Notes under the pieces: model-generated | Databases searched by the model: none | Seen by the model: only the letters and a program-made list of their open reading frames with translations | What the model was told of the DNA's origin: nothing | Assembly (NCBI GenBank): GCA_964584935.1 | Contig: CAZPBN010000004.1 | Location: 6,507 to 70,506 of the forward strand | Length of the DNA stretch: 64,000 nt | Direction: 5' to 3' | Source: an uncultured Eubacteriales bacterium | GTDB lineage: Bacteria > Acidobacteriota > Aminicenantia > Aminicenantales > Aminicenantaceae | Program-made: the position numbers and the translations under genes | Shown: piece by piece, positions 432 through 35,278 of the stretch | Position numbering within the stretch: the first letter of the stretch is position 1 | How the letters are laid out: every line of letters begins with the position of its first letter

Positions 432-3400
432 ATGTCCATGAGAAGGCTTCCCCACTCTTTACTGAGATTAAGATTCCATAATAGAATTTTCACCTTATTA
501 TTGATCTTACTTTTCTTTTGTATTTGTTACTCCAATACTTATTCTCAATACTTCGGACGCAATAAAGTTCAATATAAACAATTTGATTTTAACATTCTAA
601 AAACAAAGCATTTTGATATCTATTTTTATCCTAAAGAACAGGAAGCCGCAAAACAGGCGGCTTTCCTTGCTGAGCGCTGGTATGCCCGCTTCTCCAGGAT
701 TCTCAATCACACCTTTAACCAACGTCAGCCGCTCATCATTTATGCCAGCCAGCCTCATTTCAGACAGACAACCACAATCCCAGGCATTATGGGAGAAGGA
801 ACTGGGGGAGTGACAGAATTTTTAAAAAGAAGGATCGTCATCCCCATGGGAGCCTCACTTGCCCAAACCGACCATGTTATTGGCCACGAGTTAGTTCATG
901 CTTTTCAATATGACATTTCCATGCAAGACAGATCAAAATTTGCGATTGCCACATCCCCTTTATTCAGACTCCCTCTCTGGTTTATTGAAGGAATGGCAGA
1001 ATACTTATCCATTGGCCCGACTGATTCTCATACTTCTATGTGGATGCGGGATGCCTGGTACAGGAAAAGAGTTCCAAACATAAAAAAACTCAACAATTCA
1101 TCCAAATATTTCCCCTACCGTTATGGTCAATCCCTATGGGCATACATCACCGGAACTTGGGGAGATAAGGCTGTAGGAACCATTATGAAATCTGCATGCC
1201 AAACAGGAGACTATAAAACTGCTTTTCAAAAGATCACCGATATTCCTTTAGAGGCTATATCTGAAAAATGGATAAGATCAATGGAAAAAGCTTATAAGCC
1301 TTTGACTCAATCCACTCATGTCTCCATTGACTCAAAACATCTCGTGATCAAGGGGGATAAAGATAAGAAACTCAATATTTCTCCCTCTCTTTCTCCAGAT
1401 GGGAAAAGTTTAATCTTTCTATCCACAAGAGACTGGTTCTCAGTTGATATGTATTTGGCAGATGCCGTTAAGGGAACAATAAAAAAAAGACTGACCCGAA
1501 CAGATGTGAATCCTGAATTTGAAAGCTTGCAGTTTATTAAATCATCAGGATCCTGGAATACTCAAGGTGACCGATTTGTATTTGGAGCCATAAAAAAAGG
1601 CAAGCCCGTTCTTTCTTTTATCAATATTGAAAACGGCACCATAACAAAAGAAGTTATGCTCAAAGAGCTGGAAGAAATTTTAAATCCCTCCTGGTCGCCG
1701 TGCGGAAGATATATTGCCTTCTCCGCAATGATCGGAGGATTTTCAGATATTTTTATCTATGACCTTGAAAAAGAAGCCCTCAAACAGATAACCAATGATC
1801 CTTTCGCTGACCTCAGTCCAGCCTGGTCACCAGACGGTCAATATATTGCATTTGTCTCTGATAGATTTACTTCTGATATGTCCCACTTTAATCCCGGAAA
1901 TTACCAAATCTCTCTTTTAGAAACTCGCTCAAAAAAGATTAAAAGAGTTCCTGGAATTCCTGTTGCCAATAACACAAATCCTCAATGGTCTTCCGACTCA
2001 AAAAGTCTGTATTTTATCTCTGATCTGAATGGCATCACCAATATATACAGGATAAAATTATTCCAATACAAACTGTATCAAATCACAAATCTTTTCACCG
2101 GTATCAGCAGCATCACCTCATTAAGCCCTGCCCTTTCCCTGTCATCCAAAAGCAGCCATCTTGTTTACTGCACATTTGAAGATGGATATTACAATATTTA
2201 TTCTATAGATAATCCTGAAAAAATATCTGGCTGTGAAAAAATAATTCTATTCGATGACATTAAACCTTCTATTCTTCCTCCCAGACAAAAAGCAGAAGGG
2301 AATCTATCCGAACTTCTAAAAAATCCACTATTCGGACTTCCTGAGGAAGCATCATTTGAAATAAATGATTACAAGCCAAAATTAAAGCTCGATTACATGA
2401 CCCCTCCTCAAATTGCCATAGGTGTTGACAGTTTTGGTACTTATGCCGGGGGTGGAACAGCCTTATTCTGGAGTGATATGATGGGGTACCACAATCTCGT
2501 CACTATGATTCAAGCAAGTGGCCGCCTTCCTGACACGGCAGCTCTCATCGGGTATCAAAACAGCCAGTCCCGTTGGAACTGGGGGGCAATTGCCCAGAGA
2601 ATTCCCTATCTCATGGGAGGTTACGCGCTCTATTTTGATGAAAGGGAAGAAGAATCTGTCTATGTGGAAGAAGAATACATTTACCGGCAAAGCAACAATC
2701 AGCTTACTTTATTTGCTTCCTATCCCTTTAGCCAGGTCAAGCGTATTGAATTTTCAACAGGTTACTCATATATCAATTTCACCCGGGAAATCCGGAGAAA
2801 TATCTATTCTCTGGACGGGTATCTAATGGATAAAGAAAAAGAAAAATTGCCTTCAGCCCAAAGTCTTCATTTAGGCTCTCTCAGTATCGCTTTTGTCCAT
2901 GACAGCTCCATTCCCGGAGCCACAAGCCCGCTAATCGGGCAAAGCTACCGGCTTGAATATTCTCCGACCATAGGATCGATTTCTTTACAGACCATACTTG
3001 CCGACTATCGCAAGTATATCGTTCCCATTAGCCCCTTTACAGTTGCCTTTCGCTTTCTCCACTATGGACGGTATGGAAAAAATTCTGAAGATGAGAGGCT
3101 GTGGCCCCTTTTCCTTGGTTATGAAACATTCATCAGGGGATACAATTATCAGTCATTCGATTCCGAAGAACTGAATGAAGGTGAGGGCTATTTTGATTTT
3201 GACCGTCTTATAGGAAGCAGAATCCTTGTTGCCAACTTTGAAATCCGCTTTCCTGTTTTTCGATTACTGGGTCTAGGAAGAGGGTACTACGGCAGCTATC
3301 CCTTAGAATTCATCACTTTTTTTGATACCGGTCTAGCCTGGGACGCAGAACACAAGCCCTGGTTTTCCGGAGGAAACCGCAAACCTCTTTCCAGTGCTGG

Positions 3401-3518
3401 CATCGGCCTCCGAACCAATCTATTGGGATACATGGTCCTGGGTCTCAATCTTGTGAAGCCGTTCGACAGGCCTAACAAAGGCTGGTATCTTCAACTGAGC
3501 TTATGGCCGGGATTCTGA
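432..3518 (+). CDS. Omp85-family outer-membrane beta-barrel protein fused to an MA-clan zinc metallopeptidase-like domain and PD40 (TolB-like) beta-propeller repeats
   Basis: N-terminal signal-like segment. HExxH motif (VIGHELVHAF) with a downstream EGMAEY glutamate. Several PD40-type repeats (SPSLSPDGKSLIF, SPAWSPDGQYIAF, NPQWSSDSKSLYF). The C-terminal ~370 aa align to the BamA encoded in this same window, including the loop-6 FIRGY (VRGY-type) motif, FITFFDTG versus FVFFYDRG, GIGLRTNL versus LGMEVRIF, and a terminal aromatic (...LWPGF). Confidence 0.85.
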   Translation: MSMRRLPHSLLRLRFHNRIFTLLLILLFFCICYSNTYSQYFGRNKVQYKQFDFNILKTKHFDIYFYPKEQEAAKQAAFLAERWYARFSRILNHTFNQRQPLIIYASQPHFRQTTTIPGIMGEGTGGVTEFLKRRIVIPMGASLAQTDHVIGHELVHAFQYDISMQDRSKFAIATSPLFRLPLWFIEGMAEYLSIGPTDSHTSMWMRDAWYRKRVPNIKKLNNSSKYFPYRYGQSLWAYITGTWGDKAVGTIMKSACQTGDYKTAFQKITDIPLEAISEKWIRSMEKAYKPLTQSTHVSIDSKHLVIKGDKDKKLNISPSLSPDGKSLIFLSTRDWFSVDMYLADAVKGTIKKRLTRTDVNPEFESLQFIKSSGSWNTQGDRFVFGAIKKGKPVLSFINIENGTITKEVMLKELEEILNPSWSPCGRYIAFSAMIGGFSDIFIYDLEKEALKQITNDPFADLSPAWSPDGQYIAFVSDRFTSDMSHFNPGNYQISLLETRSKKIKRVPGIPVANNTNPQWSSDSKSLYFISDLNGITNIYRIKLFQYKLYQITNLFTGISSITSLSPALSLSSKSSHLVYCTFEDGYYNIYSIDNPEKISGCEKIILFDDIKPSILPPRQKAEGNLSELLKNPLFGLPEEASFEINDYKPKLKLDYMTPPQIAIGVDSFGTYAGGGTALFWSDMMGYHNLVTMIQASGRLPDTAALIGYQNSQSRWNWGAIAQRIPYLMGGYALYFDEREEESVYVEEEYIYRQSNNQLTLFASYPFSQVKRIEFSTGYSYINFTREIRRNIYSLDGYLMDKEKEKLPSAQSLHLGSLSIAFVHDSSIPGATSPLIGQSYRLEYSPTIGSISLQTILADYRKYIVPISPFTVAFRFLHYGRYGKNSEDERLWPLFLGYETFIRGYNYQSFDSEELNEGEGYFDFDRLIGSRILVANFEIRFPVFRLLGLGRGYYGSYPLEFITFFDTGLAWDAEHKPWFSGGNRKPLSSAGIGLRTNLLGYMVLGLNLVKPFDRPNKGWYLQLSLWPGF

Positions 3519-5873: not shown

Positions 5874-6836
5874 TTATTGAAATAAAATCCACCAAAGAAA
5901 ATTCACCAGAGCGTGAGTGATGGCTGAGGCAGTGAATTTTTTTGTTCGCATCCAAACCCAACCATAGCTTAATCCAGCTAAACCAGCCATAAGCGCATAA
6001 GCCCAGTTGGGCACTGAAAATCCCATGGTTGCATTATTGATATGGGACAATCCAAAAATCACTGCTGCCAAAACCAATCCTGAATAAACATTCTTTAAAC
6101 GCCGGATTAACAGATTCTGGATCACCCCCCGAAACAGCATTTCTTCGATTAAAGCGATAAAAAAATATCCAAATAACAAGACAGAAACCATCTGTAGAAA
6201 AGGAGGTGCCTTGGGAGCAAACCGGAGAAATCCCAGCCCTATGCCTAAGGGAACGCTAACAAAAGCATAGGCTAATAGACCGAGCAGCACATTTTTTAAA
6301 TCTTTAAAGTCCAGGCGAAATGTAAAGTTAAAACCATCCAAAGGATGATGAACAGCAAACAAATAAAGAGTTAGAGATACACCTGTTAACATGCCCACAG
6401 GCAGTGATAAACCCGGCGCAAGTTCTGCGTTAACCGAAGGCAGCAAATGAACACCAGAGAGCCAGGTATTCCATTTGACAAAGGGGAAAACCAGATTCAG
6501 GAGCAGCACAAACAAATCAAATTCCATAGGTATCCAGACGGACAAGATTGCCAGAATATGATAGATATCAAAAGGTCGGTTTTTTGAAGGACGCAAACGC
6601 AGCCAGATGGTGGGGAGAGCCAAGCAAACCGCAAATCGCAGCAATTCTTCTAGGTCAAGCTGCATCCTTACCGTTAACAAATAAGGCAGCAAAAAGATTC
6701 CCACCGACCAATCTCCCAGCCGTTTACTGATTGATGTGAACAGAGAACGCCAGACAGGGAGGGCAAATCCCAAATAAAATCCCAGCAGGATAATCCAAGC
6801 CACAATGTTATCGATCATATCCGTGTTATTCTCCAC
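5874..6836 (-). CDS. CPBP-family (CAAX) intramembrane metalloprotease
   Basis: Multi-TM protein with the CPBP motifs EExxxR (IEEMLFRGV) and FxxxH (FGLSH) plus a downstream conserved His (ITHALVNF). Confidence 0.8.
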   Translation of the reverse strand: MENNTDMIDNIVAWIILLGFYLGFALPVWRSLFTSISKRLGDWSVGIFLLPYLLTVRMQLDLEELLRFAVCLALPTIWLRLRPSKNRPFDIYHILAILSVWIPMEFDLFVLLLNLVFPFVKWNTWLSGVHLLPSVNAELAPGLSLPVGMLTGVSLTLYLFAVHHPLDGFNFTFRLDFKDLKNVLLGLLAYAFVSVPLGIGLGFLRFAPKAPPFLQMVSVLLFGYFFIALIEEMLFRGVIQNLLIRRLKNVYSGLVLAAVIFGLSHINNATMGFSVPNWAYALMAGLAGLSYGWVWMRTKKFTASAITHALVNFLWWILFQ

Positions 6837-7038: not shown

Positions 7039-7350
7039 CTATAAAAATTGGGGAAAGGAACAATTGAACAGTTTTATGGATCCCGTTCCATCTTTTCTCA
7101 CTTCTCCTCTCAGATAACACACCGGAGGAGAACCAAAAGTCAAACATTTCTCTTCCCCCACTCCTTCCAGCAATCCTGTTTCATCTTCAAAAAGATAAAA
7201 ATATTTCCGCCCGCTGTTGACAAGTTTCTGCCGGGCATCCACCACTCTCACCAGAAGCTCCACCCGGCTTCCCACAAGTGTTCTGAGATTCTTTATCCGT
7301 AGAGACGGTCTTTTTTTCATACAAAGAAAGAGAATCGCCTTCGGGTTCAA
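7039..7350 (-). other. dnaE2: C-terminal OB-fold segment of dnaE2 in a different frame (frameshift at or near the A7 tract 7311..7317)
   Basis: The 103-aa ORF overlaps the end of the 887-aa ORF. It encodes VGSRVELLVRVVDARQKLVNSGRKYFYLFEDETGLLEGV, the OB-fold motif found at DnaE C-termini. Both frames span the same homopolymer. Confidence 0.6.
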
Positions 7351-9850
7351 AGCCTAAAGATTCCACAAGCATTGTCCTTTTCTGATTCTGATCCAGATCA
7401 GAAATCTCACCCATTTTCTTGAGTCCTCTGAAATAATGGAGAATCTGCCGGGTTCTTCGAGGCTCCAGAAAATCCAGAACCCCAGCCTTGATCAGCGATA
7501 AAAGTTCTGTTTTCGTCAGGGAAACCCGGGAGATAAAATCGTCCACAGAAAGATAAACACCGTTTTCTTTCTCTTTTATTATTCGGTCTATGAATTTTAT
7601 CCCAACCCCCTTGATAGAATGGAGGCCCACCCTGATATTTCCTCCTTCCACTTCAAAACCATAACCGCTCCGGTTTAAATCCGGCTTTAAGATTTTTATT
7701 CCCATTCTCTTGGCTTCTTCAATATATTCAGCCAATCCATAGTAACCACCCCCCGCGTTCAGCACAGCTCCAAGATAAACCACCGGATAATGCACTTTCA
7801 AATAGACTGCTTGATAAGCCATGTTGGCATAAGAAGCACTATGGGCTTTGTTAAAAGAGTAGGATGAAAATTCCTCCATTATTTTCCATAATTTTTTTAT
7901 CTCTCCCAGGGTATAACCTCTTTCTTTTGCCTCCGCAAAAAAATGATTTTTGAGCTTTGGCTTTACTTTTTTTTTCTTTAAGGCACGGCGGAGACAGTCT
8001 CCTTTCTCCGGAAGCATGCCTGCAACGCGTTCCGCAATTTGCATAACCTGTTCTTCATAGAGAAGAATACCATCCGTTTCTGGAATGACTTTGGCCATAA
8101 AAGAATCCTTGAATGCAGGCTTTCCTTCCCTGCTGCGCAGGAGAGCTTCTTTCATCCCGCTTCGGGTCGGACCCGGCCGGATAAGCGCCAATGCCTGAGT
8201 GAGTTCATAAATGTTTTTTGGCCTCATTCGCCGCAGCAGATTCATCATTGCCGGACTTTCCACCTGGAAACAGCCTATAGTCCGGCCCTTTTTCAACCTT
8301 TCGTAGGTCTCATCATCCTCAAGGGGAATATTTCTGAGTTTTAATACCTTTTTTGTTTCAGACAGGGCTGCCAATCCTCTAACCGAAAGCAGATCCAGCT
8401 TTATCAGCTTCAGATCCTCTACGGCATCCCGGTCGTATTGAGACATTCGATAACCTTTAGCTGACTTCTCGGTGGGCAGATAACGGGCTAAAGGATCAGG
8501 AGTGAGAATAATCCCTCCCACATGCAATGACTTCTCACTGTAAACAGAATCGAGCAAGGAAGCCATTTTCCATACTTTGGCATAGCCGGGAGGAGAAACA
8601 TTCTCTTTCAGAAAAACAGGCTCGGCAAACAGCGGAATTCGCTTGCTTAAAGTTCTTGCCTCCTCCGGGGAAATACCAAAAGCCCTTGCTGTCTCATACA
8701 AGGCGGAGCGGGCACGGAAATTTTTAAGACTGCACACAAAGGCAGCCCCTGTCTTTCCTTTGCTGTATTTTTTCAAAACATAGGAAATCATTTCATCCCT
8801 CCGCCGGGAATCAAAATCCAGGTCTATATCCGGAGGATCAGCCCTCCCCCTGTTAAGGAATCGTTCAAAGCACAGATCATAAACAACAGGATTGATATGA
8901 GAAATTCCAAGAAGATAAGCCAGAAAAGAAGAAGCTCCGGAGCCTTTGAGATTATGAAGAACTCCACGGCACCGGGCATACCGGACCACATCATGGACAA
9001 TCAGGAAATAGGGGGCAAATCCCGATTGCTCAATAACTTCGAGCTCCATCCTCGCCCGCTGCCTTTCTCTCCAGCTCAAATCTTTTCTGACCTTCAATTC
9101 TCTCCTAGCCAGATCCCTCAAGCTGGTTGAGAAAAGACCCTGAGGAAGAGGCAATATAATATGTTCAAAGGGAAAGCGGCATTTATCCGCTATTTCAAAC
9201 GTCTTCTTAAAAAGTTTTTTCACTTCTGAGCCAAATTGGGCAACAGCCCGACTTTCCTGCGCTGGACCAAACAATTCCACTCTATTCTTTAACTTTTGCC
9301 ACTCAGGCGGGAAAGGAATTTTTTTCTGAATCGAATGAAGAAGAATCAACCGTTCAGGGCTTTGTATGTATTTCAAGGGATTTGTCCATACAACCGGGAG
9401 ATTTTCTTTTTTTGCCAAACCCACCGCTCTTTTCAAATTAAAAAAGTCTCCCCCAATGTACAAATCTTCCTTCTGTGAAAAACAAATATTGTCCCCTGAT
9501 TCTTTATCCGAAGAATCAGGGATGAAAACCGTTACCAATCCTTCTGTTTTTTCTATTTTTCGTTGGTTTAGAATCTCCATCAAGTTCCAGTAACCTTTTC
9601 TGTTCTTCACCAAAAACAACAGGCTCTTTCCTTGGAGCTTTATCTCACAACCAAAGACAGGATTAAAACCGCTGTCAAGAGCGATTTTCTTCCACTCGTT
9701 CCAACCGTAGATGTTTTCTATGTCTGTCAGAGCCGCTGCAGCAAGTCTGCATTGTGAAACCCATGAAGCCAGCTCCTGTAAAGTGGTCCCTCCTTTTCCT
9801 TTGCTGTAGGTGGAATGCACTCGAAGAGGAATGAACATCATTGACTCCAA
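7187..9850 (-). CDS. dnaE2: error-prone DNA polymerase III alpha-like (DnaE2/ImuC), main reading frame; interrupted near the 3' end
   Basis: N-terminal PHP domain (LRVHSTYS...) and polymerase core. Shorter than a replicative DnaE. It sits downstream of lexA and a Y-family polymerase in the same orientation. The frame ends 40 codons after an A7 tract at 7311..7317. Confidence 0.8.
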   Translation of the reverse strand: MESMMFIPLRVHSTYSKGKGGTTLQELASWVSQCRLAAAALTDIENIYGWNEWKKIALDSGFNPVFGCEIKLQGKSLLFLVKNRKGYWNLMEILNQRKIEKTEGLVTVFIPDSSDKESGDNICFSQKEDLYIGGDFFNLKRAVGLAKKENLPVVWTNPLKYIQSPERLILLHSIQKKIPFPPEWQKLKNRVELFGPAQESRAVAQFGSEVKKLFKKTFEIADKCRFPFEHIILPLPQGLFSTSLRDLARRELKVRKDLSWRERQRARMELEVIEQSGFAPYFLIVHDVVRYARCRGVLHNLKGSGASSFLAYLLGISHINPVVYDLCFERFLNRGRADPPDIDLDFDSRRRDEMISYVLKKYSKGKTGAAFVCSLKNFRARSALYETARAFGISPEEARTLSKRIPLFAEPVFLKENVSPPGYAKVWKMASLLDSVYSEKSLHVGGIILTPDPLARYLPTEKSAKGYRMSQYDRDAVEDLKLIKLDLLSVRGLAALSETKKVLKLRNIPLEDDETYERLKKGRTIGCFQVESPAMMNLLRRMRPKNIYELTQALALIRPGPTRSGMKEALLRSREGKPAFKDSFMAKVIPETDGILLYEEQVMQIAERVAGMLPEKGDCLRRALKKKKVKPKLKNHFFAEAKERGYTLGEIKKLWKIMEEFSSYSFNKAHSASYANMAYQAVYLKVHYPVVYLGAVLNAGGGYYGLAEYIEEAKRMGIKILKPDLNRSGYGFEVEGGNIRVGLHSIKGVGIKFIDRIIKEKENGVYLSVDDFISRVSLTKTELLSLIKAGVLDFLEPRRTRQILHYFRGLKKMGEISDLDQNQKRTMLVESLGFEPEGDSLSLYEKKTVSTDKESQNTCGKPGGASGESGGCPAETCQQRAEIFLSF

Positions 9851-12140: not shown

Positions 12141-14282
12141 ATGAAAAAAAGACTGCTTATCTTAGCCTTTATTCCTCTGGTTCTTTTTTTTAATACCTGT
12201 AAACAAGAACCAGAATTTCCGCAGCCTGAATTGATCTATTCTGAAACAAAAAAAGTTGATGTGGTGGATGATTATTTTGGCACTGAAGTTCCTGATCCTT
12301 ACCGCTGGTTTGAAGACATCAATTCTAAAGATGTCAAATCCTGGGTAAAAGCCCAAAATGAGGTCACTTTTTCCTACCTGGAACAGATTCCCTTTCGAGA
12401 AAAAATCAGGCAGCGCATCACCGAACTCTACGATTATCCTAAGTATTCTTCTCCATTCCGGGCAGGCGATTATTATTTTTTCTATAAAAACGAAGGCCTG
12501 CAGAATCAGTCTGTTATCCATGTCCAGAAAGGCCTGGATGGAGAGCCTGAAGTATTTATTGACCCCAATAAACTTTCTCCTGACGGAACCATTAGAATCT
12601 ACCTTATTGGCTTCTCCAAAGATAACCGCTATGCCGCCTATTCCCGTTCCGAAGCAGGCTCAGACTGGCAGGAAATCAGAATTATGGAAATCGAGACCAA
12701 AAAAGAGCTAAAGGATCGAATCCGTTGGGTCAAATTCAGTGGAGCTGCATGGTACCAGGATGGTTTCTTTTACAGCGGATATGATGAACCAAAACCAGGA
12801 CAGGAACTTAAAGAACAGAACAAGCACCAAAAGATTTTTTATCATGAACTCGGGGATCCCCAAAAAAAAGATAAGCTAATTTATGAAGATAGGGAACATC
12901 CCTTACGCTATGTCTCTGCAGATGTGACAGAAGATTCAAAGTATCTGGTTTTAGTGGTCTCCGAAGGGACAAGCGGGAATGAACTTCACTATAAAGAACT
13001 GGGGGAAGAAAAAGCGGAATTCAAACCTCTCATCACTGGTTTTGACAATGACAGCTATATCATCGATAATCTCGAGGAGAAGTTTTTAGTCTACACCAAT
13101 ATCGATGCTCCCAACTACCGGGTGGTCAAAATCGATCCGAATGCTCTCGAAAGGGATAAATGGGTTGATGTCATTCCCGAAAAAGCTGAGGTTCTTAACA
13201 GCACCAACACAGCTGGCGGTTATCTTTTCTGCCGCTATCTCAAGGATGCCCACACTCAAGTTTTCCAGCATGATTTAGAAGGAAATCTGGTTCGGGAAAT
13301 CGAACTCCCTGCTTTGGGAACAGCCTCTGGTTTCGGCGGGAAAAAAGAACACAAGACTCTTTTCTACGTGTTTACTTCTTTCACTTATCCTCCCACCATT
13401 TACAAGTACCAGGTTGAAGACGGCACTTCTGAAATTTTTCGCAAAACCAAAGTCCCCTTCAATCCAGAAGACTATGTGACCCATCAAGTTTTTTACACCA
13501 GCAAGGACGGCACTGAGGTTCCCATGTTTCTGGTTCACAAAAAAGGAATCAATAAAAACATTAAAAATCCTGTTTTCCTCTATGGTTACGGGGGATTTAA
13601 CGTCAGTCTCACCCCTTCTTTCAGCTCCACCCGGATTTTTCTTTTAGAAAACGGATTCATCTTTGCCCAAGCCAATCTTAGGGGAGGCGGAGAATACGGA
13701 GAAAAATGGCATGAGGCTGGAATGCTTCTCAACAAGCAGAATGTTTTTGACGATTTTATTTCAGCTGCTGAATTTTTAATCGATGAACAATACACTTCCA
13801 AAGACAAATTAGCTATAGCGGGTGCTTCCAACGGCGGTCTATTGGTGGGAGCAGCCATGACTCAACGCCCTGACCTTTTCGCTGTAGCCCTCCCTGCAGT
13901 GGGAGTGATGGATATGCTGCGGTATCACAAATTCACCGTAGGATGGGGATGGGTTGTGGAGTACGGTTCCAGTGAAGAAGAAAAGCACTTTGAAAATCTT
14001 TACTCTTACTCTCCCTACCATAACCTTAAAGAGGGCGTTTGTTATCCAGCCACATTAGTGACCACAGCAGACCATGACGATCGAGTGGTGCCGGCTCATT
14101 CCTTTAAATTTATTGCAGCCCTACAAGAAAAACACGCTTGTGAAAATCCTGTGCTCATCCGGATTGAAACCCGCTCAGGTCACGGCTCCAGCTCCACCAC
14201 CAAGATGATCGACGAACTGACTGACGAATACGCATTCATGTGCTACAACCTTGGAGTGAGTGTGAACAAAGAGCCCAATTGA
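12141..14282 (+). CDS. prolyl oligopeptidase (S9A family), probable lipoprotein
   Basis: N-terminal beta-propeller region and a C-terminal alpha/beta hydrolase with the catalytic Ser motif GASNGGLLVG plus downstream Asp and His. Signal peptide with a Cys (LFFNTC). RBS GAGGAGG. Confidence 0.9.
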   Translation: MKKRLLILAFIPLVLFFNTCKQEPEFPQPELIYSETKKVDVVDDYFGTEVPDPYRWFEDINSKDVKSWVKAQNEVTFSYLEQIPFREKIRQRITELYDYPKYSSPFRAGDYYFFYKNEGLQNQSVIHVQKGLDGEPEVFIDPNKLSPDGTIRIYLIGFSKDNRYAAYSRSEAGSDWQEIRIMEIETKKELKDRIRWVKFSGAAWYQDGFFYSGYDEPKPGQELKEQNKHQKIFYHELGDPQKKDKLIYEDREHPLRYVSADVTEDSKYLVLVVSEGTSGNELHYKELGEEKAEFKPLITGFDNDSYIIDNLEEKFLVYTNIDAPNYRVVKIDPNALERDKWVDVIPEKAEVLNSTNTAGGYLFCRYLKDAHTQVFQHDLEGNLVREIELPALGTASGFGGKKEHKTLFYVFTSFTYPPTIYKYQVEDGTSEIFRKTKVPFNPEDYVTHQVFYTSKDGTEVPMFLVHKKGINKNIKNPVFLYGYGGFNVSLTPSFSSTRIFLLENGFIFAQANLRGGGEYGEKWHEAGMLLNKQNVFDDFISAAEFLIDEQYTSKDKLAIAGASNGGLLVGAAMTQRPDLFAVALPAVGVMDMLRYHKFTVGWGWVVEYGSSEEEKHFENLYSYSPYHNLKEGVCYPATLVTTADHDDRVVPAHSFKFIAALQEKHACENPVLIRIETRSGHGSSSTTKMIDELTDEYAFMCYNLGVSVNKEPN

Positions 14283-23012: not shown

Positions 23013-26000
23013 ATGAGAAAAAAATATTTATTTGTTTTCATACTGTTTCTATTCATTCCCCAATATTTACCCGGAGAGCATCTCCTGAGCCTATCCCATG
23101 TCTTTCTCCAAGGCAAAGGAATGACAGATCAGGATAGTGATCAGATTCCTGATGATATATCTCTCAACATTATCATTCCTGACAATCCGAATGCCTACGA
23201 AATCTGTGTTGCCGGGGATCTGGCTGCCAGGGCTAACTTCGAAAGTCTTGCCGTTGACTTTTCAATCATAAAAAAAGAATCTGATGTGAAGTACAGGAAA
23301 AATATTTTCTTTCCTGTGCTCATCGGGAATAGACTCCGATGGACAAAAAAGCTGTTAAAAAGAGAAAGTTCAAGTTATAAGGACTTAAAATCCAATCAAG
23401 GAATCGTTTCTGTTTTTTCCGAAAACAATCAAACAGGGATAATGCTTTTAGCCGGATCGAGAAATGCACTTCTTCTCACGGGAAGGGCTTTCTTCTTGCG
23501 GTGGCCTTACATCTGGGATATCTGGGGCCGAAAAGAAGGAGACACGTACACTTCCGTTGAAAAAGACATCGGTGATTTTTTTAAAAATGAAAAAACCGAA
23601 TTTAAAAATATAATCATAAAATCAGCAATATATGAATTCATCAATGCTTCAGAACACAAAAATTATCCTCAAAAACTGAAATTCCATACAGGCGAAATAA
23701 AAAATTTAATCATTTCTATCCAATTTAAAAATGAAGATGAACAGGAAAAGGCACTTCAATCTTTTAAAACACTCCAGATTGATCACAAAAGAGGAATAAG
23801 AACAAATCTCCTCTCCTATGCAGGATGCTCCCAATTGACTTTTGAACTTTTATACGGCTCAAAAATAAAAAAAATCACTATCGACCGAATGGGATATCCC
23901 CAAAGAATGCTCACTCCCTCCTATAAATCAGCTCCCACTCCAAAAGATTCAGGAAAAAATTTTGACCTTCTTGAACTTTTTTCAAATAAAGGTTTCTATT
24001 CTGACAAAAATGATGATCGAATTCCGGACAGTATAGATGCCTGCATTATACTACCTGAAGAGACAAACATAAAAGGACCCGAATATCTGGCATCTAGGAT
24101 GGTTCTGGAAACGGCTGGGGCTTCTTTTCCCCTTCTTTATCTGGATAAGGAAATAAAAAACAACGAAAGCCTGGTTAGTCCTGTGCTCATCGGAAAGGAT
24201 AATTCTCTTAATCAATCATTAGTGAAAACTGGAAAATTAACCATTCCTGATCTAGACCAAAACCAATGTATGGTCAGGATTATCCCCCATGCCTTCAATA
24301 AATCCAATGCCCTTTCCCTTATCAGCTCAGACAATCTAGGCGTTGAAAAAGCACTTTCCTATTTGAGCCAGATTTATCCCTATTTTGGATCCTATAAAAT
24401 GGGAAATCCTCAATTCCAGGATGTGCCTGTGGATATTAAAGGATTTCTTAAAGGGGAAAAAGGAAGTGCGGAATCCTATTTTTATAAAAAATTGAAAGAA
24501 TTTGTAGAAAAAATGGACTTTAAAGAACTTCAATATTTCAGTATGGATATTATTCTTCCTCAAAAAAATTATTGTTACGGAAAAGATCTAAAAAATTTTT
24601 TGAAAGAAACTCTTGACGCAGATAAAATCGAAGTCAAAAACTCCAGTCTCAAAGAAAGCAAACTCATTTTTGAAGAAGAGAAAGCTTTCCAATGGGAAAT
24701 GGATAATGCTCTTGAATTGATAAAGGAACAAATCAAACCAATGCAAAATTCAGAAAAAAGTATTTCCATAAGCCTGGGAATAAGTGAATCTCCTGAAGTA
24801 CGCAATCAAATAAAAAAACAAATAAAAGACATTTTAGAGCAGAAAAATATTTTCGAATATGACATTGAAATCCTGTCATCCTACAAACAGGGATTTTTCT
24901 GGTTAATCGAAAAAATTCTTCCCTCCATCCAGTCTGAAAAGATTGACCATCTTTTAATAAAATTTCCACGCCAGAATGACCCATTAAACCAGCCTAAACG
25001 ATTTTATGCTGAGCCCTATCGTTGGCTCAAGGAACTTTACCCGGTTGATGAAATCATATCTGAGGAAACTCATATTCCATTAGAAAAAATTGTTTTTGAA
25101 ATGAAAGAAGACAACAAGATTTCTTATGAAGTTCTCGCCTATGACAATAACAACAATATAATATTTCAGGATAAATTTTATCCGCACACAAGAGAACGGA
25201 CTTATTTGAATGTTCTTCCGGAATGGGGAAAAACAACTGTGACAACAAACTGGCTCAAAATAAAACAAGGGAATCAAATTATTTGTGACACCCTTTTAAA
25301 ATCCGACCTTGAACAGTTTTGGGAATACTACCAGAATGAAATACTGACACGAGTTCATTCATATATTCTTAAGAAAACCAAAAACGAACCTACTTTTTCA
25401 AAACAACCTTACTTTAAACGGCTGCTCGTCGAAATGTGGTTCAGCGAACCCGACTATAAACTCAACCTGGATGAAGAAATAATCAGTTCTCTCGAAGCCA
25501 TTCATGACGAAATCTATTTTGATACTCTGGATTTTTTAAGAGGGATAACCAGCATTGGAAAAGAAGAAAAAAATATTCCCGACGATACTTCGAGGTATTC
25601 GGCTCCAGGAAATGTCTTTCCTTTGATTCATCCCTCATCGGAAGGAGAACCGGGCAGAATTAAAATCAAATTTGAAGGATGGAAATCCAAATCTCCACAG
25701 ATTAATATAAAATGGAAAGAAAAGGGAAGGCAAGAATTAACTCATACCATAGTGTTCCCTTCCATAAAGGCAAAATCTATTAAAATTCCTTCCTTAATCT
25801 ATAATGGCAGCAAAGACATCATAGAACGCTTGTATGCCAAAATCGAGTTGAATCAAAAGGAAGATTATTTGAATCTTATTGACATTATCAACAATTACAG
25901 AAAACTAAAAAATCTTGAAATCATTCCATGCTCATTTGATTATCCTCAACTGAAATCAATCATTTGGGGAATAGAGTGGAATGACCTTAAAAAAGATGAA

Positions 26001-27158
26001 ATATTTGATACTTCTTCTGCAAAGGAGATACTCGATAAAAATATAAAAACAGATACCGATAACGGTGATATTGTCCCTACAGATAAAATCCTATCTCATC
26101 AGATGTGTATGGAAATTGTTCAAAAACTCAGTTCTTTCGATGTTATCCACAGCTATAATGCAGGAATTTCCTATGAAGAAAGAAAAGTCCCTGTCATTGA
26201 AAGCTTCCTTCCTAACAAAAAATATGTATCCATTCCTCGACTTGTCACCTTCAAGCCAACTCTCTATTTAAACGGTCGGCAGCACGCCAATGAAGTCTCA
26301 TCCACAAATTACATATTAAAATTTGCCGAGCTTCTTGCTAGAAAAGATGAATTTAAAAACTATTTGAATAAAATAAACTTTATTTTTCATCCCATGGAAA
26401 ATCCGGACGGAGCTGACCTGGCTTATCAACTTCAAAAAATCACTCCTCATCACAGTCTTCATGCGGGCAGATATTCACCCCTGGGCATAGAAATCGGATA
26501 TCTGATAAATGCACCTGATCCAATTTTACCGGAAGCAAAAGTAAGAAAAGAGATTTTTGAAAAATGGCTTCCGGACATTCATCTCAACCTCCATGGCTAT
26601 CCTTCTCATGAATGGGTTCAGCAGTTTTCCAACTATTCCCCTTACTTGTTTCGCGATTACTGGATTCCACGAGGTTGGTTTGCCTATTACCGGGCTCTTT
26701 CCCTTCCTATATACGAAAAATGGACCAAGGCAGGCATACAGTTAAAAAAGTTCATAATAAAGGAAATGAATGCCAGCGAAAAAATCAGTTCTTCAAACAG
26801 AAAATTTTATAATCGCTATTTCCGGTGGGCAGCCAGATGGCAACCCCATATGAATTACCTTGAAATTTATGATGGATTGAATCTTTACTCAAAAAGACGT
26901 TCCTCCACAGAAAGAAAACTTTCTCCCTCAAGGCGCATCACCTATATATCAGAAGTTCCCGAACTCATGGATGAAACAGCTCACGGTGAGTGGCTGAATT
27001 TCCTGTGCCAGCAGGGATTGAGTTATATAAAAGCCCACGCCAAATACCTCTCCAATACAAAATTTGAAATAGCCCGTATCGAAGAAGAATTGAAAAACAG
27101 GATCCATATCCAATTCATTCGCAGCCGCCCTGGGAATTTAGAAGAAGACGAACAATGA
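23013..27158 (+). CDS. very large secreted protein (1381 aa) with an internally duplicated N-terminal module and a C-terminal M14 (zinc carboxypeptidase / gamma-D-glutamyl-DAP peptidase)-like domain
   Basis: Signal peptide. Two related N-terminal segments (DQIPDDISLNIIIPDNPNAYEICVAGDLAARANFES and DDRIPDSIDACIILPEETNIKGPEYLASRMVLETAGASFP). C-terminal M14 hallmarks in order: H-x-x-E (GRQHANEVSS), NPDG (FHPMENPDGADL), and the third zinc His (LNLHGYPSHEW). Confidence 0.75.
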   Translation: MRKKYLFVFILFLFIPQYLPGEHLLSLSHVFLQGKGMTDQDSDQIPDDISLNIIIPDNPNAYEICVAGDLAARANFESLAVDFSIIKKESDVKYRKNIFFPVLIGNRLRWTKKLLKRESSSYKDLKSNQGIVSVFSENNQTGIMLLAGSRNALLLTGRAFFLRWPYIWDIWGRKEGDTYTSVEKDIGDFFKNEKTEFKNIIIKSAIYEFINASEHKNYPQKLKFHTGEIKNLIISIQFKNEDEQEKALQSFKTLQIDHKRGIRTNLLSYAGCSQLTFELLYGSKIKKITIDRMGYPQRMLTPSYKSAPTPKDSGKNFDLLELFSNKGFYSDKNDDRIPDSIDACIILPEETNIKGPEYLASRMVLETAGASFPLLYLDKEIKNNESLVSPVLIGKDNSLNQSLVKTGKLTIPDLDQNQCMVRIIPHAFNKSNALSLISSDNLGVEKALSYLSQIYPYFGSYKMGNPQFQDVPVDIKGFLKGEKGSAESYFYKKLKEFVEKMDFKELQYFSMDIILPQKNYCYGKDLKNFLKETLDADKIEVKNSSLKESKLIFEEEKAFQWEMDNALELIKEQIKPMQNSEKSISISLGISESPEVRNQIKKQIKDILEQKNIFEYDIEILSSYKQGFFWLIEKILPSIQSEKIDHLLIKFPRQNDPLNQPKRFYAEPYRWLKELYPVDEIISEETHIPLEKIVFEMKEDNKISYEVLAYDNNNNIIFQDKFYPHTRERTYLNVLPEWGKTTVTTNWLKIKQGNQIICDTLLKSDLEQFWEYYQNEILTRVHSYILKKTKNEPTFSKQPYFKRLLVEMWFSEPDYKLNLDEEIISSLEAIHDEIYFDTLDFLRGITSIGKEEKNIPDDTSRYSAPGNVFPLIHPSSEGEPGRIKIKFEGWKSKSPQINIKWKEKGRQELTHTIVFPSIKAKSIKIPSLIYNGSKDIIERLYAKIELNQKEDYLNLIDIINNYRKLKNLEIIPCSFDYPQLKSIIWGIEWNDLKKDEIFDTSSAKEILDKNIKTDTDNGDIVPTDKILSHQMCMEIVQKLSSFDVIHSYNAGISYEERKVPVIESFLPNKKYVSIPRLVTFKPTLYLNGRQHANEVSSTNYILKFAELLARKDEFKNYLNKINFIFHPMENPDGADLAYQLQKITPHHSLHAGRYSPLGIEIGYLINAPDPILPEAKVRKEIFEKWLPDIHLNLHGYPSHEWVQQFSNYSPYLFRDYWIPRGWFAYYRALSLPIYEKWTKAGIQLKKFIIKEMNASEKISSSNRKFYNRYFRWAARWQPHMNYLEIYDGLNLYSKRRSSTERKLSPSRRITYISEVPELMDETAHGEWLNFLCQQGLSYIKAHAKYLSNTKFEIARIEEELKNRIHIQFIRSRPGNLEEDEQ

Positions 27159-27163
27159 CATTT

Positions 27164-28807
27164 TCAGTTCAATCGCCTGTCTTTTTCATCCTTCCCCCAT
27201 TCGGGCAGTTTGAACTGTTCAGGTTTAAGCTGGAGTACTTTTTGAAGCCATTCAGAAGGATATCCTTCACTCCGGGGACGCCCTTTTTCATCTTTCACAT
27301 ACCCATCATTGTATTTTGTTAAAAGATATTCTCCTAAATCAATCCACCGTCTTACCACCATTTCTCCTTGAGACACAGAGTAATTGGTAAGAAACTCTTT
27401 GGCAAGCTCTGGATCCGTCTTATACAACTCCACAGCTGTTTTTTCTATCACTGGCTGAAAGGCGATAAAATTATTTTCCAGCTTTTTCTGGACTTTTTGT
27501 ATATCCTTCACCATAGAGGAATATCTCAAATTCGCCAAATTAGCCACAAAATTAAAAACCCACCAGGCAGAATCCCATGAAAACTTTTGAATATCACCAA
27601 CTGTGAATGACTCAGGAATTCGATTCACACAACAATAAAGGGGAACATAACAATTGGTATAGGTATCATCAACAGCAAACCAATACACTCCTCCCACAGC
27701 ATCCGGAAGATTATCACGGGATTGGGATATGAATGAAAAACTGGTCTGTTGGGTTGAAATGGGCCTTTCCCAGCTGTATGTATTTTCATCTATTTCCCAG
27801 GTCAAACCTCTGTAACGAACAGGACAGCCAAAAGGGCCGGCATCGATTCCTTTGGTCATATCAAACTCTGTTCCTTCATAGTGATCCCGCATGATATTCA
27901 TTACATCGCTGACAGAAAGCTTTTTGTCTGGCTTAATCCATAAGGGATATGGTTTTTCCCCTTTAACCCCTCGGTGGAAATCAGGAGAAAAATTTAAAGA
28001 AGGAGCACTGCGCCGAAACATACTCCACACCCGCGCCGCACACGTTCTCAAAGAGGAGGGCTTTGGGGGGTCAAATGCATAACGGAAATTGAAACGCTTT
28101 CCTGATTTTCTGTCATAATAGCCTTTTTCTTCGGCAAAGGAGATGATATTCTCAGAATACAGGCAATTTTCAGGATCATCCAGAGGAAACTCGCCAATTC
28201 GTGACATATTAGCATGAGCTGAAATATATCCATCCGGTATCCGTAAGGCAACCCAGTGAGCTCCTTCCCCTCCAGATCCGGGGCCAATCATTTCCATTAT
28301 CCATGCTTCATTTTTATCAGCTATGGAAAAAGACTCTCCTGAACTGGAATAACCATATTCTGCCACCAGCTCTGTCATAACCTGAATCGCTTCTCTTGCT
28401 GTTTTTGCTCTCTGCAAAGCAATTCCCATCAGAGTGAAATAATTCAACAATCCATCAGAATTAACCAGTTCCTTGCGTCCTCCGAATGTGGTTTCTCCAA
28501 TAGCTACCTGGAATTCATTCATCAATCCCACCACGGAATAAGTATGAGGAATTTGTTTAATTTTTCCTTTGACTTTACCACCCCAGCTTTTAATTTCTAT
28601 AAATTCATCTGGTTTGTGATCTTGTGCAGGGATATAATCAAGCTTGTAGAGAAATTCACCGTCACAGGTATAAGTAATCATAACCGATCCATTTTCTGAG
28701 GCACCTTTGGTCACCAAAAAACTTGAGCAGTTATCCTGTGCCCATTGAACCGTAATCAAAAAGCTAAAAAGAAAAAGACACATAAAAAAAACTTTTTTAA
28801 CTTTCAT
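27164..28807 (-). CDS. secreted C69-family dipeptidase
   Basis: GGAGG RBS before the ATG at 28807. Signal peptide, then a nucleophile Cys at the mature N-terminus (AQDN-CSSFLVTKGASENGSVMITYTCD), as in C69 peptidases. Convergent with the giant M14-like gene; the stop codons are 5 bp apart. Confidence 0.8.
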   Translation of the reverse strand: MKVKKVFFMCLFLFSFLITVQWAQDNCSSFLVTKGASENGSVMITYTCDGEFLYKLDYIPAQDHKPDEFIEIKSWGGKVKGKIKQIPHTYSVVGLMNEFQVAIGETTFGGRKELVNSDGLLNYFTLMGIALQRAKTAREAIQVMTELVAEYGYSSSGESFSIADKNEAWIMEMIGPGSGGEGAHWVALRIPDGYISAHANMSRIGEFPLDDPENCLYSENIISFAEEKGYYDRKSGKRFNFRYAFDPPKPSSLRTCAARVWSMFRRSAPSLNFSPDFHRGVKGEKPYPLWIKPDKKLSVSDVMNIMRDHYEGTEFDMTKGIDAGPFGCPVRYRGLTWEIDENTYSWERPISTQQTSFSFISQSRDNLPDAVGGVYWFAVDDTYTNCYVPLYCCVNRIPESFTVGDIQKFSWDSAWWVFNFVANLANLRYSSMVKDIQKVQKKLENNFIAFQPVIEKTAVELYKTDPELAKEFLTNYSVSQGEMVVRRWIDLGEYLLTKYNDGYVKDEKGRPRSEGYPSEWLQKVLQLKPEQFKLPEWGKDEKDRRLN

Positions 28808-32950: not shown

Positions 32951-35278
32951 TTAAAACGTAGTACCGATTGCAAAACGAAATGCAAAATTGGAATCACTCG
33001 CATATATCGTCGGATTATTATAAGAAAAAATCAACCTGAATGGAATTCTCAAAGCTGGCACGAATATTCTCACTTCCATTCCCAGAGAAGAATACATATT
33101 CTTAAAATCAACTTTTTCTTCCAGAGAATAGGCATTTCCCCTGTCATAAAAAAACACAAAATACAAGGGTCCTCCAGCCGGTATTATATATTCAACATTA
33201 AAAATAAAAGCTTTATCTCCTCCTATGTTTGTTCCTTGTTCGCTTCGAGGACCGATTGTATATATTTCATAACCTCTTATAGACCTTTCTCCACCTAGAT
33301 AAAATCTTTCCCAAAATGGAATTTCCGAATCCCCGATAGGTTGAATAAATCTGTATTCCCAATGTATTCCAAAAACATGGTTAGAAACAACGGGGTGATA
33401 AAATGTGAACTCAAACTGAGGTTTAACTAAGTCAATCTCACCGCCTAAAAATGAACCTGCGTATTTGCATGAAGCCATATACAACGTTCCTTTGGTTGGA
33501 GTCAATGGACTATCAATAGTGGATCTATAAAGCATGGGAGTTAAACTGCTTATCTTATAATTACCTAATCCAAACATGGAGTAATATATAGGATCAAAAT
33601 AGGTCATACCACTGTCTTCCTCATCTTCTTCATCTTCTCCAGGAAGGATTATATTGACATCTTCAAATGAATAGGTCAGATTGGTTCTCCAGTATCCAAT
33701 GATCCTAGCACCAAATTTCAAATCTATTCCATCACCTTTTCGTTCATACAGATAGGGCAAAATCAAATGGCGCTTATAGATATTAAAGCCTAAATTGATC
33801 GGTAAATCAAAAACATAAGGCTCTGAGAATCCAAACACATAGTTTTTAATTCTTTTTCCGTGCTGAAGCATCAATTCAAGTTTTTCGCCGGCTCCCAGGA
33901 AATTAACTGTTGAATAACTAACTCCCGCAAAAAGACCTTCATATCCGCTGTATCCAGCAGTAAACTGAATATTATTTCTTTGCAGTTCATTCACATTAAG
34001 GGTGATATCAACTTGAGAAGGATCTTTCGGATCTGGAGCCACTTCAGGTTCTCCTTCCAATTCAACCAGTCCTAACTGATTCATCCTTAACAAGCTATTC
34101 TTGAATAAGGAAAAATGAAATCTCATTCCTTCTCTTAATAGCATTTCCCGTCTTAAAACTTTATCTTTTGTGTAAGTGTTTCCTTTGAAATTAATCCGTC
34201 TGACATAGGCAACTTCACCTTCATAAATGTTATATACCAAATTCACTCTTTTCCTCTTGGGATCAAGATTCTCTCTGGGAACAACTTGAGCGTATATATA
34301 ACCGATATCACGATACGCATTTGAAATATCTTCGATACTCTGTTCTGTTATCTTGGTGTCATATATATCTCCTTTTTGAAATTCAATCAGGCTCCGCAGG
34401 AACTTTGTGGAAACAACCTCATTCCCTTCAATCTGGACACTTCCAATTCTATACCTATAGCCCGCCTCGACCGGTATATGAACCTCTTTCATTGTTTTCT
34501 TTTTTAAAAAAATGGTCCTCTTTGTAATTTCTTCTATTCTCGGATCTCCAACTTCCGCTTCCATATACCCATACTCATGAAATTTATTTTCTATATGTTT
34601 CAAATCCTCTTTGAGTTTATTCGGTTTAAAAACATCCTTTCCCAAAACCAAGGAAATCAATCCATGCTCCATATTCTCCTTCATGGCTTCTTTTAAATAG
34701 GCATCCGGAAGTTTGGACTTTCCTTCGAATATGATATCACTGATTTTTGTTTTTGTTCCCTCTTTAATATCAAAAACAATTTCAACTTCATTTTTCCTTT
34801 GTTCTTTCACATCAACTTCGATTTTTCCATCATGAAGTCCTTCTTCCAATAGCAATCCTTTGATTGTGCTTTTTATTTTATGGATTTTGGAAGGATTATA
34901 ATAAGAGTGAACACTGACATATTCATTTTTCTCTTTTAACTTATCCAAAATATCCTTTTCTTTCAGTTTTTTTCCCGTCTTATATTCGATTTTCTTAATA
35001 ACTGGATTTTCTTCAATGAATATTTTAATAATTTTCCCCTCAGGACTATCCTCTCCTTCAATTTTAATATTAGAAAAAAATCCTGTATCCCATAAAACCT
35101 TAAAATCATTCTTCAACCTAGATTCATTATAAAAATCCCCTTCTCTTGCAGAAATATAATAGAGGATTGTGTCCCTAGAAACACGCTCATTTCCTATGAT
35201 TTCGAGTTTTTCTATGATTTCCTGAGCGTTTAGAAACAACGGAATAAAAAGAATTAATATCAAGCTAATTTTTCTCAT
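32951..35278 (-). CDS. bamA: outer membrane protein assembly factor BamA
   Basis: Signal peptide, POTRA repeats, a C-terminal Omp85 barrel with the RGY loop-6 motif, and the terminal FAIGTTF. Confidence 0.9.
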   Translation of the reverse strand: MRKISLILILFIPLFLNAQEIIEKLEIIGNERVSRDTILYYISAREGDFYNESRLKNDFKVLWDTGFFSNIKIEGEDSPEGKIIKIFIEENPVIKKIEYKTGKKLKEKDILDKLKEKNEYVSVHSYYNPSKIHKIKSTIKGLLLEEGLHDGKIEVDVKEQRKNEVEIVFDIKEGTKTKISDIIFEGKSKLPDAYLKEAMKENMEHGLISLVLGKDVFKPNKLKEDLKHIENKFHEYGYMEAEVGDPRIEEITKRTIFLKKKTMKEVHIPVEAGYRYRIGSVQIEGNEVVSTKFLRSLIEFQKGDIYDTKITEQSIEDISNAYRDIGYIYAQVVPRENLDPKRKRVNLVYNIYEGEVAYVRRINFKGNTYTKDKVLRREMLLREGMRFHFSLFKNSLLRMNQLGLVELEGEPEVAPDPKDPSQVDITLNVNELQRNNIQFTAGYSGYEGLFAGVSYSTVNFLGAGEKLELMLQHGKRIKNYVFGFSEPYVFDLPINLGFNIYKRHLILPYLYERKGDGIDLKFGARIIGYWRTNLTYSFEDVNIILPGEDEEDEEDSGMTYFDPIYYSMFGLGNYKISSLTPMLYRSTIDSPLTPTKGTLYMASCKYAGSFLGGEIDLVKPQFEFTFYHPVVSNHVFGIHWEYRFIQPIGDSEIPFWERFYLGGERSIRGYEIYTIGPRSEQGTNIGGDKAFIFNVEYIIPAGGPLYFVFFYDRGNAYSLEEKVDFKNMYSSLGMEVRIFVPALRIPFRLIFSYNNPTIYASDSNFAFRFAIGTTF

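Follow-up and report, generated by a model that had tools for sequence, protein, structure and literature searches.

A WD40-like Omp85 protein from the Aminicenantaceae with a predicted gluzincin peptidase domain, a PD40 propeller and a POTRA-less barrel

The window examined here, a stretch of 64,000 nucleotides from contig CAZPBN010000004.1 of an uncultured member of the Aminicenantaceae, contains at 432..3518 (+ strand) a complete gene of 1028 codons plus stop, with an ATG start and limits that match the list of open reading frames exactly. An independent public contig carries a gene call for an identical protein. The gene looks monocistronic, since the upstream DNA is AT-rich and non-coding and a gap of 225 bp separates it from trkH. 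No paralogue of the 1028-aa protein was found within the window. A canonical BamA, with five POTRA domains and an Omp85 domain, is encoded at 32951..35278 (- strand), as the first-pass annotation of this DNA had recognised. Peptidase genes are plentiful in the window, with S9, C69 and M14-like domains represented.

Four parts make up the protein. A Sec signal peptide is followed by a gluzincin peptidase domain, a PD40 propeller, and a POTRA-less linker with a β-barrel. The first-pass annotation had assigned the peptidase, propeller and barrel from the letters of the sequence; all three assignments proved correct, and every motif it quoted is present. The full-length AF2 model has a pLDDT of 92.2 and a pTM of 0.90, values which suggest a fixed arrangement of the domains. 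The protein's own sequence falls under every curated HMM threshold for peptidase and Omp85 families. Conservation was assessed in two sets of relatives, one of 121 close homologues and the other of 86 diverse sequences of 28-52% identity.

Residues 1-38 (432..545, + strand) form a Sec-type signal peptide, with a predicted signal peptidase I cleavage site between TYS and QYFG. In the model a hydrophobic helix spans residues 9-28, and residues 1-11 and 26-38 have pLDDT values below 50. Among 197 relatives the median leader length is 29 residues, with Ala at position -1 in 158 and Gln at position +1 in 191. A lipoprotein anchor was rejected, as neither Cys30 nor Cys32 belongs to a lipobox and just 3 of the 206 relatives carry anything resembling one. 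The mature N-terminal peptide, QYFGRNKVQY (residues 39-48; 546..575, + strand), is at least 95% conserved in the close homologues and near-invariant in the diverse set. Its pLDDT is ∼93 in the full-length model, compared with less than 50 when the N-terminal domain is modelled alone, suggesting that the peptide packs on another domain.

The domain that follows (residues ∼39-295; 546..1316, + strand) has the features of a clan MA(E) gluzincin, namely a thermolysin-like fold and an HExxH motif with a downstream Glu as predicted zinc ligand. The motif HELVH (residues 152-156; 885..899, + strand), the predicted site of zinc binding and catalysis, lies within a modelled helix, 143-164, and the motif EGMAEY (residues 186-191; 987..1004, + strand) within a second, 182-194. 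Across the 86 diverse sequences E153, E186 and G187 are invariant, and conservation of H152, H156, E190 and Y191 reaches at least 90%. By the gluzincin pattern, E186 is likely to be the third zinc ligand. Even in very divergent members the catalytic Glu, the two His and the distal Glu vary little or not at all, which argues for catalysis having been retained in these domains. A profile search of PDB sequences with the N-terminal alignment gave nothing useful, and comparison of folds was used instead. The thermolysin-like catalytic fold, with HExxH and a downstream Glu, is common to the catalytic domains of M9 collagenases, M30 hyicolysin and lugdulysin, and M1 aminopeptidases (Pfam Peptidase_MA_2, BSP), although identity to these gluzincins is only 12-16% and the accessory domains of the M1 and M9 enzymes are absent. 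Membership of the M1 aminopeptidases was rejected. Those enzymes have 18 residues between the second His and the Glu (HExxH-X18-E), whereas 29 separate H156 from E186; they have the motif GxMEN, where this protein has GGVTE (125-129); and they have flanking N- and C-terminal domains, in contrast with the single domain of ∼260 residues found here. M1 enzymes carry GAMEN before HExxH, and the conserved G-x-x-E strand (GVTE, 126-129) that precedes HExxH here occupies the same position, a likeness of motif position only.

Residues ∼300-595 (1329..2216, + strand) form a six-bladed β-propeller, for which the TolB/tricorn-type PD40 propellers are the best match in both structure and sequence. It is not TolB, however. 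The TIGR02800 (TolB) profile has a cutoff of 343 but gives a score of 117 here; residues 374-479 align to profile positions 197-300, so that the propeller alone is matched and the TolA-binding α/β N-domain of TolB is missing. Tricorn differs in another way, having a PDZ domain and a serine-protease core for which this protein has no Pfam matches.

Between propeller and barrel lies a conserved linker (residues ∼596-668; 2217..2435, + strand), marked by the motifs LPPR, NPxxGLP and YxPKLxLDY. In the DSSP assignment of the model its secondary structure amounts to one short helix (625-630) plus short strands; a β-α-α-β-β unit is absent, and a Pfam search at E<=1 found no POTRA match in the protein, while the same search recovered all five POTRA domains of the window's BamA as a positive control. 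The lack of an obvious POTRA domain, remarked on in the first-pass annotation, is thereby borne out.

The C-terminal region (residues ∼669-1028; 2436..3515, + strand) is an Omp85-superfamily barrel of BamA/TamA fold. In the AF2 model it has 16 strands, eleven before and five after a long L6-like loop (882-929), and it joins the propeller through no POTRA-like element. BamA and TamA are its best matches, with a Foldseek E-value to BamA of ∼3e-8. Loop 6 carries the sequence FIRGY (900-904), of which RGY (902-904; 3135..3143, + strand) belongs to the Omp85 signature (V/I)RG(Y/F); among the 86 diverse relatives, conservation of R902 and G903 is 90% or higher. FITFFDTG (960-967), on the strand after L6, includes FFDTG (963-967; 3318..3332, + strand), an Omp85 (F/G)xDxG motif in which F963 and D965 are invariant and G967 is at least 90% conserved in the same set. 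The chain ends in PGF (3507..3515, + strand), with the terminal aromatic residue typical of the outer-membrane-protein β-signal; PGF is found at the end of 139 of 206 relatives and PGW of 35.

A motif-for-motif alignment with the window's BamA had been proposed. The motifs do align, IRGY (901-904) with IRGY and FFDTG with FYDRG, but the alignment is not significant by itself (BLASTP E 0.22; hhalign E 6.6e-4, probability 27%). The identity of the barrel therefore rests on other evidence: the PF01103 matches of its homologues, a weak match to TIGR03303 (6.6e-5; 21.5 bits against a cutoff of 297), the AF2 model and the Foldseek comparison. PF01103 does not match the protein's own sequence at E<=1, but is matched by 11 of 27 C-terminal homologues, the best at 4.5e-13, making the homology transitive. 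A profile search of PDB sequences with the C-terminal alignment returned no match, and here too folds were compared instead. The barrel thus shares with BamA and TamA its 16 strands, both signatures and the terminal aromatic residue, and differs in its marginal sequence similarity and in the absence of the POTRA domains that they carry; it occurs, moreover, beside a canonical BamA in the same window. Many charged barrel residues are conserved (D682, R771, D858, R860, E937 and R939), and together with the strict conservation of the L6 RGY and FxDxG motifs this points to a role for the barrel beyond anchoring. Apparent barrel-only relatives were rejected as fragments, being short C-terminal matches that have no signal peptide, begin in the linker or are frameshifted.

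Is this a new kind of module? The first-pass annotation had taken it to be undescribed, but Heinz & Lithgow (Front Microbiol 5:370; PMC4104836) had already described this architecture in 2014, when they defined a POTRA-less "WD40-like Omp85" subfamily of the Omp85/TpsB superfamily. Their Table S3 (PMC4104836) gives peptidase, TolB and BamA/TamA matches for ∼95 members from many phyla, includes a column for the best aminopeptidase hit (M1/M9-like), and shows several paralogues in some species. The listed UniProt members include H1XQ58, D0MEQ5 and C1A6X2, and the table names Myxococcus, Cytophaga, Rhodothermus and Vibrio vulnificus among the carriers. The subfamily has also been described as having "divergent WD40 and peptidase domains" (PMC11358297). 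Our protein has its parts in the same order, with a PD40/TolB-like propeller N-terminal to an Omp85 barrel, an additional M1/M9-like peptidase domain at the N-terminus and no POTRA, and we see no architectural difference. By this published definition the product of 432..3518 is a WD40-like Omp85 protein, and no new kind of system. The phyla overlap (Gemmatimonadota, Ignavibacteria, Bacteroidota and Acidobacteriota), although the Aminicenantes were not among the lineages listed in 2014 (PMC4104836).

The closest named relative is 61% identical, and full-length relatives at 37-47% identity are found in several of the lineages catalogued in 2014, such as Gemmatimonadota, Ignavibacteria and Bacteroidota. 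In databases such proteins are named as BamA/TamA-family or PD40-domain proteins. The first-pass annotation had allowed that the architecture might turn out to be common and already characterised. Common it is, with full-length relatives in more than 580 species genomes, falling into well over 100 clusters at 50% identity; characterised it appears not to be, as searches of the literature for experimental work on any member turned up nothing beyond the 2014 catalogue and papers citing it.

The genes encoding these proteins stand alone. Across 80 related loci no partner gene or operon is conserved, and bam, sur, skp and tol genes are not regular neighbours; the most frequent real neighbour is an aminotransferase, in 13 of the 80. 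Large neighbour clusters in these loci were rejected as antisense artefacts in GC-rich genomes.

What, then, might the protein do? We consider it probable that it is an outer-membrane-anchored zinc peptidase which faces the periplasm and is gated by its propeller, with orientation, catalysis, gating and the nature of the substrate all inferred. Sec would export the precursor, signal peptidase I would remove the leader ahead of Gln39, and BAM would insert the C-terminal barrel, ending as it does in an aromatic residue, into the outer membrane. The N-terminal 560 residues would remain in the periplasm, as in every Omp85 protein of determined topology, PlpD included, so that the 16-strand BamA-type barrel would anchor a rigid periplasmic module of gluzincin and six-bladed propeller. 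There the HExxH...E site may cleave unfolded polypeptides or oligopeptides, with the propeller limiting access to the active site, as in enzymes of the tricorn, prolyl-oligopeptidase and DPP-IV types. Its substrates could be peptides found on the inner side of the outer membrane, or envelope proteins that have assembled wrongly. The third role suggested by the first-pass annotation, read as that of a periplasmic protease or quality-control factor associated with the outer membrane, is still plausible.

The periplasmic orientation is proposed by analogy with PlpD, formerly "type Vd secretion", in which an enzyme is likewise fused N-terminally to an Omp85 barrel. The enzyme domain of PlpD was shown in 2024 to be exclusively periplasmic (PMC11116518), tethered to the inner face of the outer membrane, and the same logic is likely here. 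This finding weakens the analogy drawn in the first-pass annotation, in which PlpD had served as the precedent for a secreted passenger. There are differences, however. The enzyme of PlpD is a patatin lipase where ours is a predicted metallopeptidase, and PlpD has one POTRA domain and no propeller. PlpD forms a homodimer. Type Vd membership (patatin-POTRA-Omp85) was rejected, as our protein has neither patatin nor POTRA matches.

Other readings give the barrel or the N-terminal domains different work. The protein could be a machine for outer membrane protein biogenesis and quality control, in which the barrel holds nascent or stalled β-barrels at a lateral gate, the propeller acts as a BamB- or TolB-like scaffold, and the peptidase degrades the failures. 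This would be, in effect, BepA fused to BamA, and it sharpens the idea of a "fusion of BamA and BamB" put forward by Heinz & Lithgow, who proposed a BAM-related role (PMC4104836). Conservation of the L6 RGY and FxDxG signatures and of charged strand residues beyond the needs of an anchor would fit such a machine, as would the ranking of BamA and TamA as the best matches to the barrel. Periplasmic HExxH proteases can cooperate with BAM, as BepA does. Against this, the POTRA domain, the substrate-handling element of BamA, TamA and TpsB, is lacking; a canonical BamA is already encoded in the same genome; no lasting association with bam, sur, skp or tol genes is seen; the propeller has six blades like TolB, not eight like BamB; and some species have several paralogues, a pattern commoner among catabolic enzymes than in core machinery. 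We regard this reading as unlikely. A related reading, which we rate as distinctly unlikely, would have the BamA-like seam or lumen capture envelope polypeptides (stalled β-barrels, lipoproteins or incoming peptides) and feed them to the propeller-gated peptidase, with QYFGRNKVQY as a regulatory latch docked on barrel or propeller. Were it true, the protein would be a self-contained, energy-independent machine for outer membrane quality control or processing, present in hundreds of species that have no known equivalent.

It is very unlikely, in our judgement, that the barrel instead exports the peptidase and propeller to the cell surface, in the manner of type V or Vd autotransporters, for the digestion of external protein as nutrient. 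The enzyme is N-terminal and the barrel C-terminal, as in classical autotransporters, and the peptidase-rich window (S9, C69, M14-like) would fit the scavenging of peptides, but we know of no 16-strand Omp85 barrel closed by L6 that passes a passenger of 560 residues. The confident model of the whole protein (pTM 0.90) suggests a fixed arrangement; the linker has one short helix (625-630), compared with the long pore-spanning helix of type Va proteins; and no cleavage or release motif is evident. Heinz & Lithgow had left the topology of enzyme-Omp85 fusions open (PMC4104836), but in PlpD, the sole precedent, re-examination has placed the enzyme domain in the periplasm (PMC11116518). Least probable of all is a non-catalytic tether, in which the propeller would link the outer membrane to the wall by binding Pal, peptidoglycan or an envelope partner, as TolB does, with the peptidase-like domain serving only as a binding module. 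The near-invariance of the catalytic Glu, both His and the distal Glu in very divergent members speaks against it, as does the absence of TolB's TolA-binding N-domain.

We therefore return to the propeller-gated periplasmic peptidase as the best explanation. The Omp85 superfamily is central to outer membrane biogenesis. Its POTRA-less subfamilies are a recognised gap, and the 2024 paper on PlpD (PMC11116518) calls them "not well characterized" and "intriguing targets". What is added here for the WD40-like Omp85 proteins is a confident model of the complete chain and a map of its invariant residues. The family is also seen to be extensive, with members in more than 580 species genomes; its genes stand alone and, as the alignments indicate, its catalytic residues are conserved. 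Model and map together could guide the choice of constructs and mutants.

The target gene occupies positions 432-3518 of the plus strand, exactly where the first-pass annotation had placed it, with an ATG start and 1028 codons in the ORF list. All of the motifs quoted in that annotation are found in the product: HELVH (residues 152-156), EGMAEY (186-191), FIRGY (900-904), FITFFDTG (960-967) and the terminal Phe. The C-terminal region, residues ~669-1028, is assigned as an Omp85-type barrel from DSSP, Foldseek, PF01103 matches of homologues and signature motifs. By DSSP, eleven strands are followed by a 48-residue loop carrying RGY and then by five strands, which is how BamA is laid out, L6 joining strands 11 and 12. 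Foldseek matches the barrel to BamA chains at E ~3e-8, with TM-scores of 0.54-0.58 when normalised to barrel-only BamA. PF01103 is reached by 11 of 27 C-terminal homologues (best 4.5e-13), both Omp85 signature motifs are conserved among relatives (R902, G903; F963, D965, G967), and PGF or PGW stands at the C-terminus in 174 of 206. The window also encodes a genuine BamA, as had been claimed, at 32951-35278 on the minus strand, comprising five POTRA domains together with a PF01103 barrel. Pairwise sequence similarity between this BamA and the target is insignificant (E 0.22; hhalign E 6.6e-4, probability 27%), and no PDB sequence matches the C-terminal profile.

The linker preceding the barrel (residues ~596-668) carries the conserved motifs LPPR, NPxxGLP and YxPKLxLDY. 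In the model it forms a single short helix and short strands, and neither HMM search nor model secondary structure reveals a POTRA domain within it. The whole-protein model, with a pLDDT of 92.2 and pTM of 0.90, suggests a fixed arrangement of the three domains. A barrel-only (noNterm) form was rejected for four short relatives from the C-terminal search (P0222, P0136, P0226 and P0238), all on long contigs, which have no signal peptide, begin within the linker or have frameshifted stretches; they are truncated gene calls rather than a separate form.

For the peptidase domain (residues ~39-295) the assignment comes from HMM matches of homologues and the conserved HExxH...E. The target's own N-domain gives only sub-threshold matches (DUF6055, BSP, M9, flagellinolysin and Peptidase_MA_2); among 35 diverse homologous N-domains, BSP matched 32, Peptidase_MA_2 24 and Peptidase_M9 16. 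Catalysis is probably retained, since across 86 relatives that are only 28-52% identical E153 and E186 never vary, and conservation at H152, H156 and E190 is at least 90%. Identity as an M1 enzyme was rejected: the His-to-Glu spacing is 29 residues, compared with 18 in M1, the motif before HExxH is GGVTE rather than GxMEN, and the flanking M1 domains are missing.

Residues 1-38 are the sole low-confidence stretch of the full-length model. The leaders of 197 relatives have a median length of 29 residues, with Ala at -1 in 158 and Gln at +1 in 191, and few relatives (3 of 206) carry a lipobox-like motif; the leader fits a Sec signal peptide cleaved by signal peptidase I. Cleavage would expose a mature N-terminus, QYFGRNKVQY (residues 39-48; window 546-575), that is nearly invariant among relatives. 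Its pLDDT drops from ~93 in the full-length model to below 50 in a model of the N-domain by itself. This segment probably packs against the propeller or barrel and may serve as a latch.

AT-rich non-coding DNA lies 5' of the ORF, and a trkH/trkA pair follows 3' after a 225-bp gap. The identical protein is also called on an independent public contig (Logan assembly of SRR7048218). There, positions 1-2667, which precede the start of the window, hold genes for a DUF481 outer-membrane protein and an RsmD-like methyltransferase and, on the other strand, a metallophosphoesterase-like gene, none with an evident link to the target. No conserved neighbouring gene was found at 80 loci of relatives, and no paralogue of the target protein within the window.

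What might such a protein do? The presence of a Sec leader and a terminal beta-signal implies that it would be exported and its barrel then inserted by BAM. An even-stranded Omp85 barrel places the N-terminus in the periplasm, and to our knowledge the N-terminal domains are periplasmic in every Omp85 protein of determined topology, PlpD included. It is for these reasons that we favour a zinc peptidase tethered to the outer membrane and facing the periplasm, with access filtered by the propeller, a reading we hold to be probable though well short of assured. Propeller-filtered access is the pattern of tricorn and S9-type propeller peptidases, from which the analogy is drawn. The patatin domain of PlpD, long believed to be secreted, is now placed in the periplasm (PMC11116518), and the type-Vd premise of the first-pass annotation is accordingly outdated.

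The main rival, that the barrel has an active BamA-like role within a quality-control machine, draws on the strict conservation of the L6 RGY, FxDxG and several charged residues of the barrel strands. We consider it unlikely, however: the target has no POTRA domain, a canonical BamA is encoded in the same window, there is no linkage to envelope-biogenesis genes, and several paralogues per species are listed in Table S3 of Heinz & Lithgow 2014 (PMC4104836). Both other readings rank below this machine: a protease displayed at the cell surface, for which PlpD had been taken as precedent, is quite improbable, and a non-catalytic, TolB-like tether more improbable still.

A word-indexed search gave, among the matches listed, more than 120 full-length homologues at 53-61% identity, most from Candidatus Aminicenantes. 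Homologues bear names such as 'PD40 domain-containing protein', 'peptidase S9', 'BamA/TamA family outer membrane protein', 'peptidase MA family metallohydrolase' and 'Tol biopolymer transport system component'. Exhaustive search of 50%-identity cluster representatives gave 1752 matches at E<=1e-30, most of the best 150 having ~1000-1100 residues and aligning over their full length. At least 584 relatives were confirmed when one genome per species was scanned, and the 80 best of them, all full-length, belong to Aminicenantes, Vicinamibacterales and other Acidobacteriota, Gemmatimonadota and Longimicrobiales, Ignavibacteria, Bacteroidota and Eisenbacteria.

Several other features of the window deserve mention. 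A 1381-aa ORF at 23013-27158 (plus strand) is largely without annotation, its sole Pfam match being a partial Peptidase_M14 (residues 1043-1139, E 2e-10). Further peptidase genes encode an S9 prolyl oligopeptidase (12141-14282, plus), a C69 dipeptidase (27164-28822, minus) and a CAAX/Rce1-like protease (5874-6836, minus), and their number suggests an organism with a heavy investment in peptide turnover. By eye, the N-terminus of the 887-aa ORF at 7187-9850 (minus; TTG start) resembles the PHP domain of DnaE-type polymerases, although the ORF appears short for a DNA polymerase III alpha subunit; ORFs at 7039-7350 (minus) and 7048-7302 (plus) overlap it, at its C-terminal end. Two adjacent genes at 52250-56727 (minus) specify an 854-aa molybdopterin oxidoreductase that is NuoG/formate-dehydrogenase-like and a 638-aa NuoF-like FMN/Fe-S subunit with extra ferredoxin domains; together these might make up a soluble module of the hydrogenase or formate dehydrogenase type. 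Over the whole window (1-64000), 30 of 32 bins of 2 kb show negative GC skew (cumulative -4.5), and of the 40 ORFs that reach 200 aa the minus strand holds 31, a pattern that would fit a single replichore.

The WD40-like Omp85 subfamily was summarised in 2024 as having 'divergent WD40 and peptidase domains' (PMC11358297), and the metalloprotease, WD40-like and patatin-like subfamilies are described as not well characterized (PMC11116518). We found no experimental study of any subfamily member in the literature searched, and no solved structure of a family member by sequence or fold searches. The architecture is thus already described and common, and what is lacking is functional study; the peptidase, propeller and Omp85 barrel proposed by the first-pass annotation are borne out, and its suggestion of novelty is not. 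We regard the architecture and family assignment as very nearly certain. The target is a new member of a known, uncharacterised subfamily, and the genome it comes from is probably that of an Aminicenantes bacterium. Rather than a discovery, it is a possible useful pointer for work on the neglected Omp85 subfamilies.
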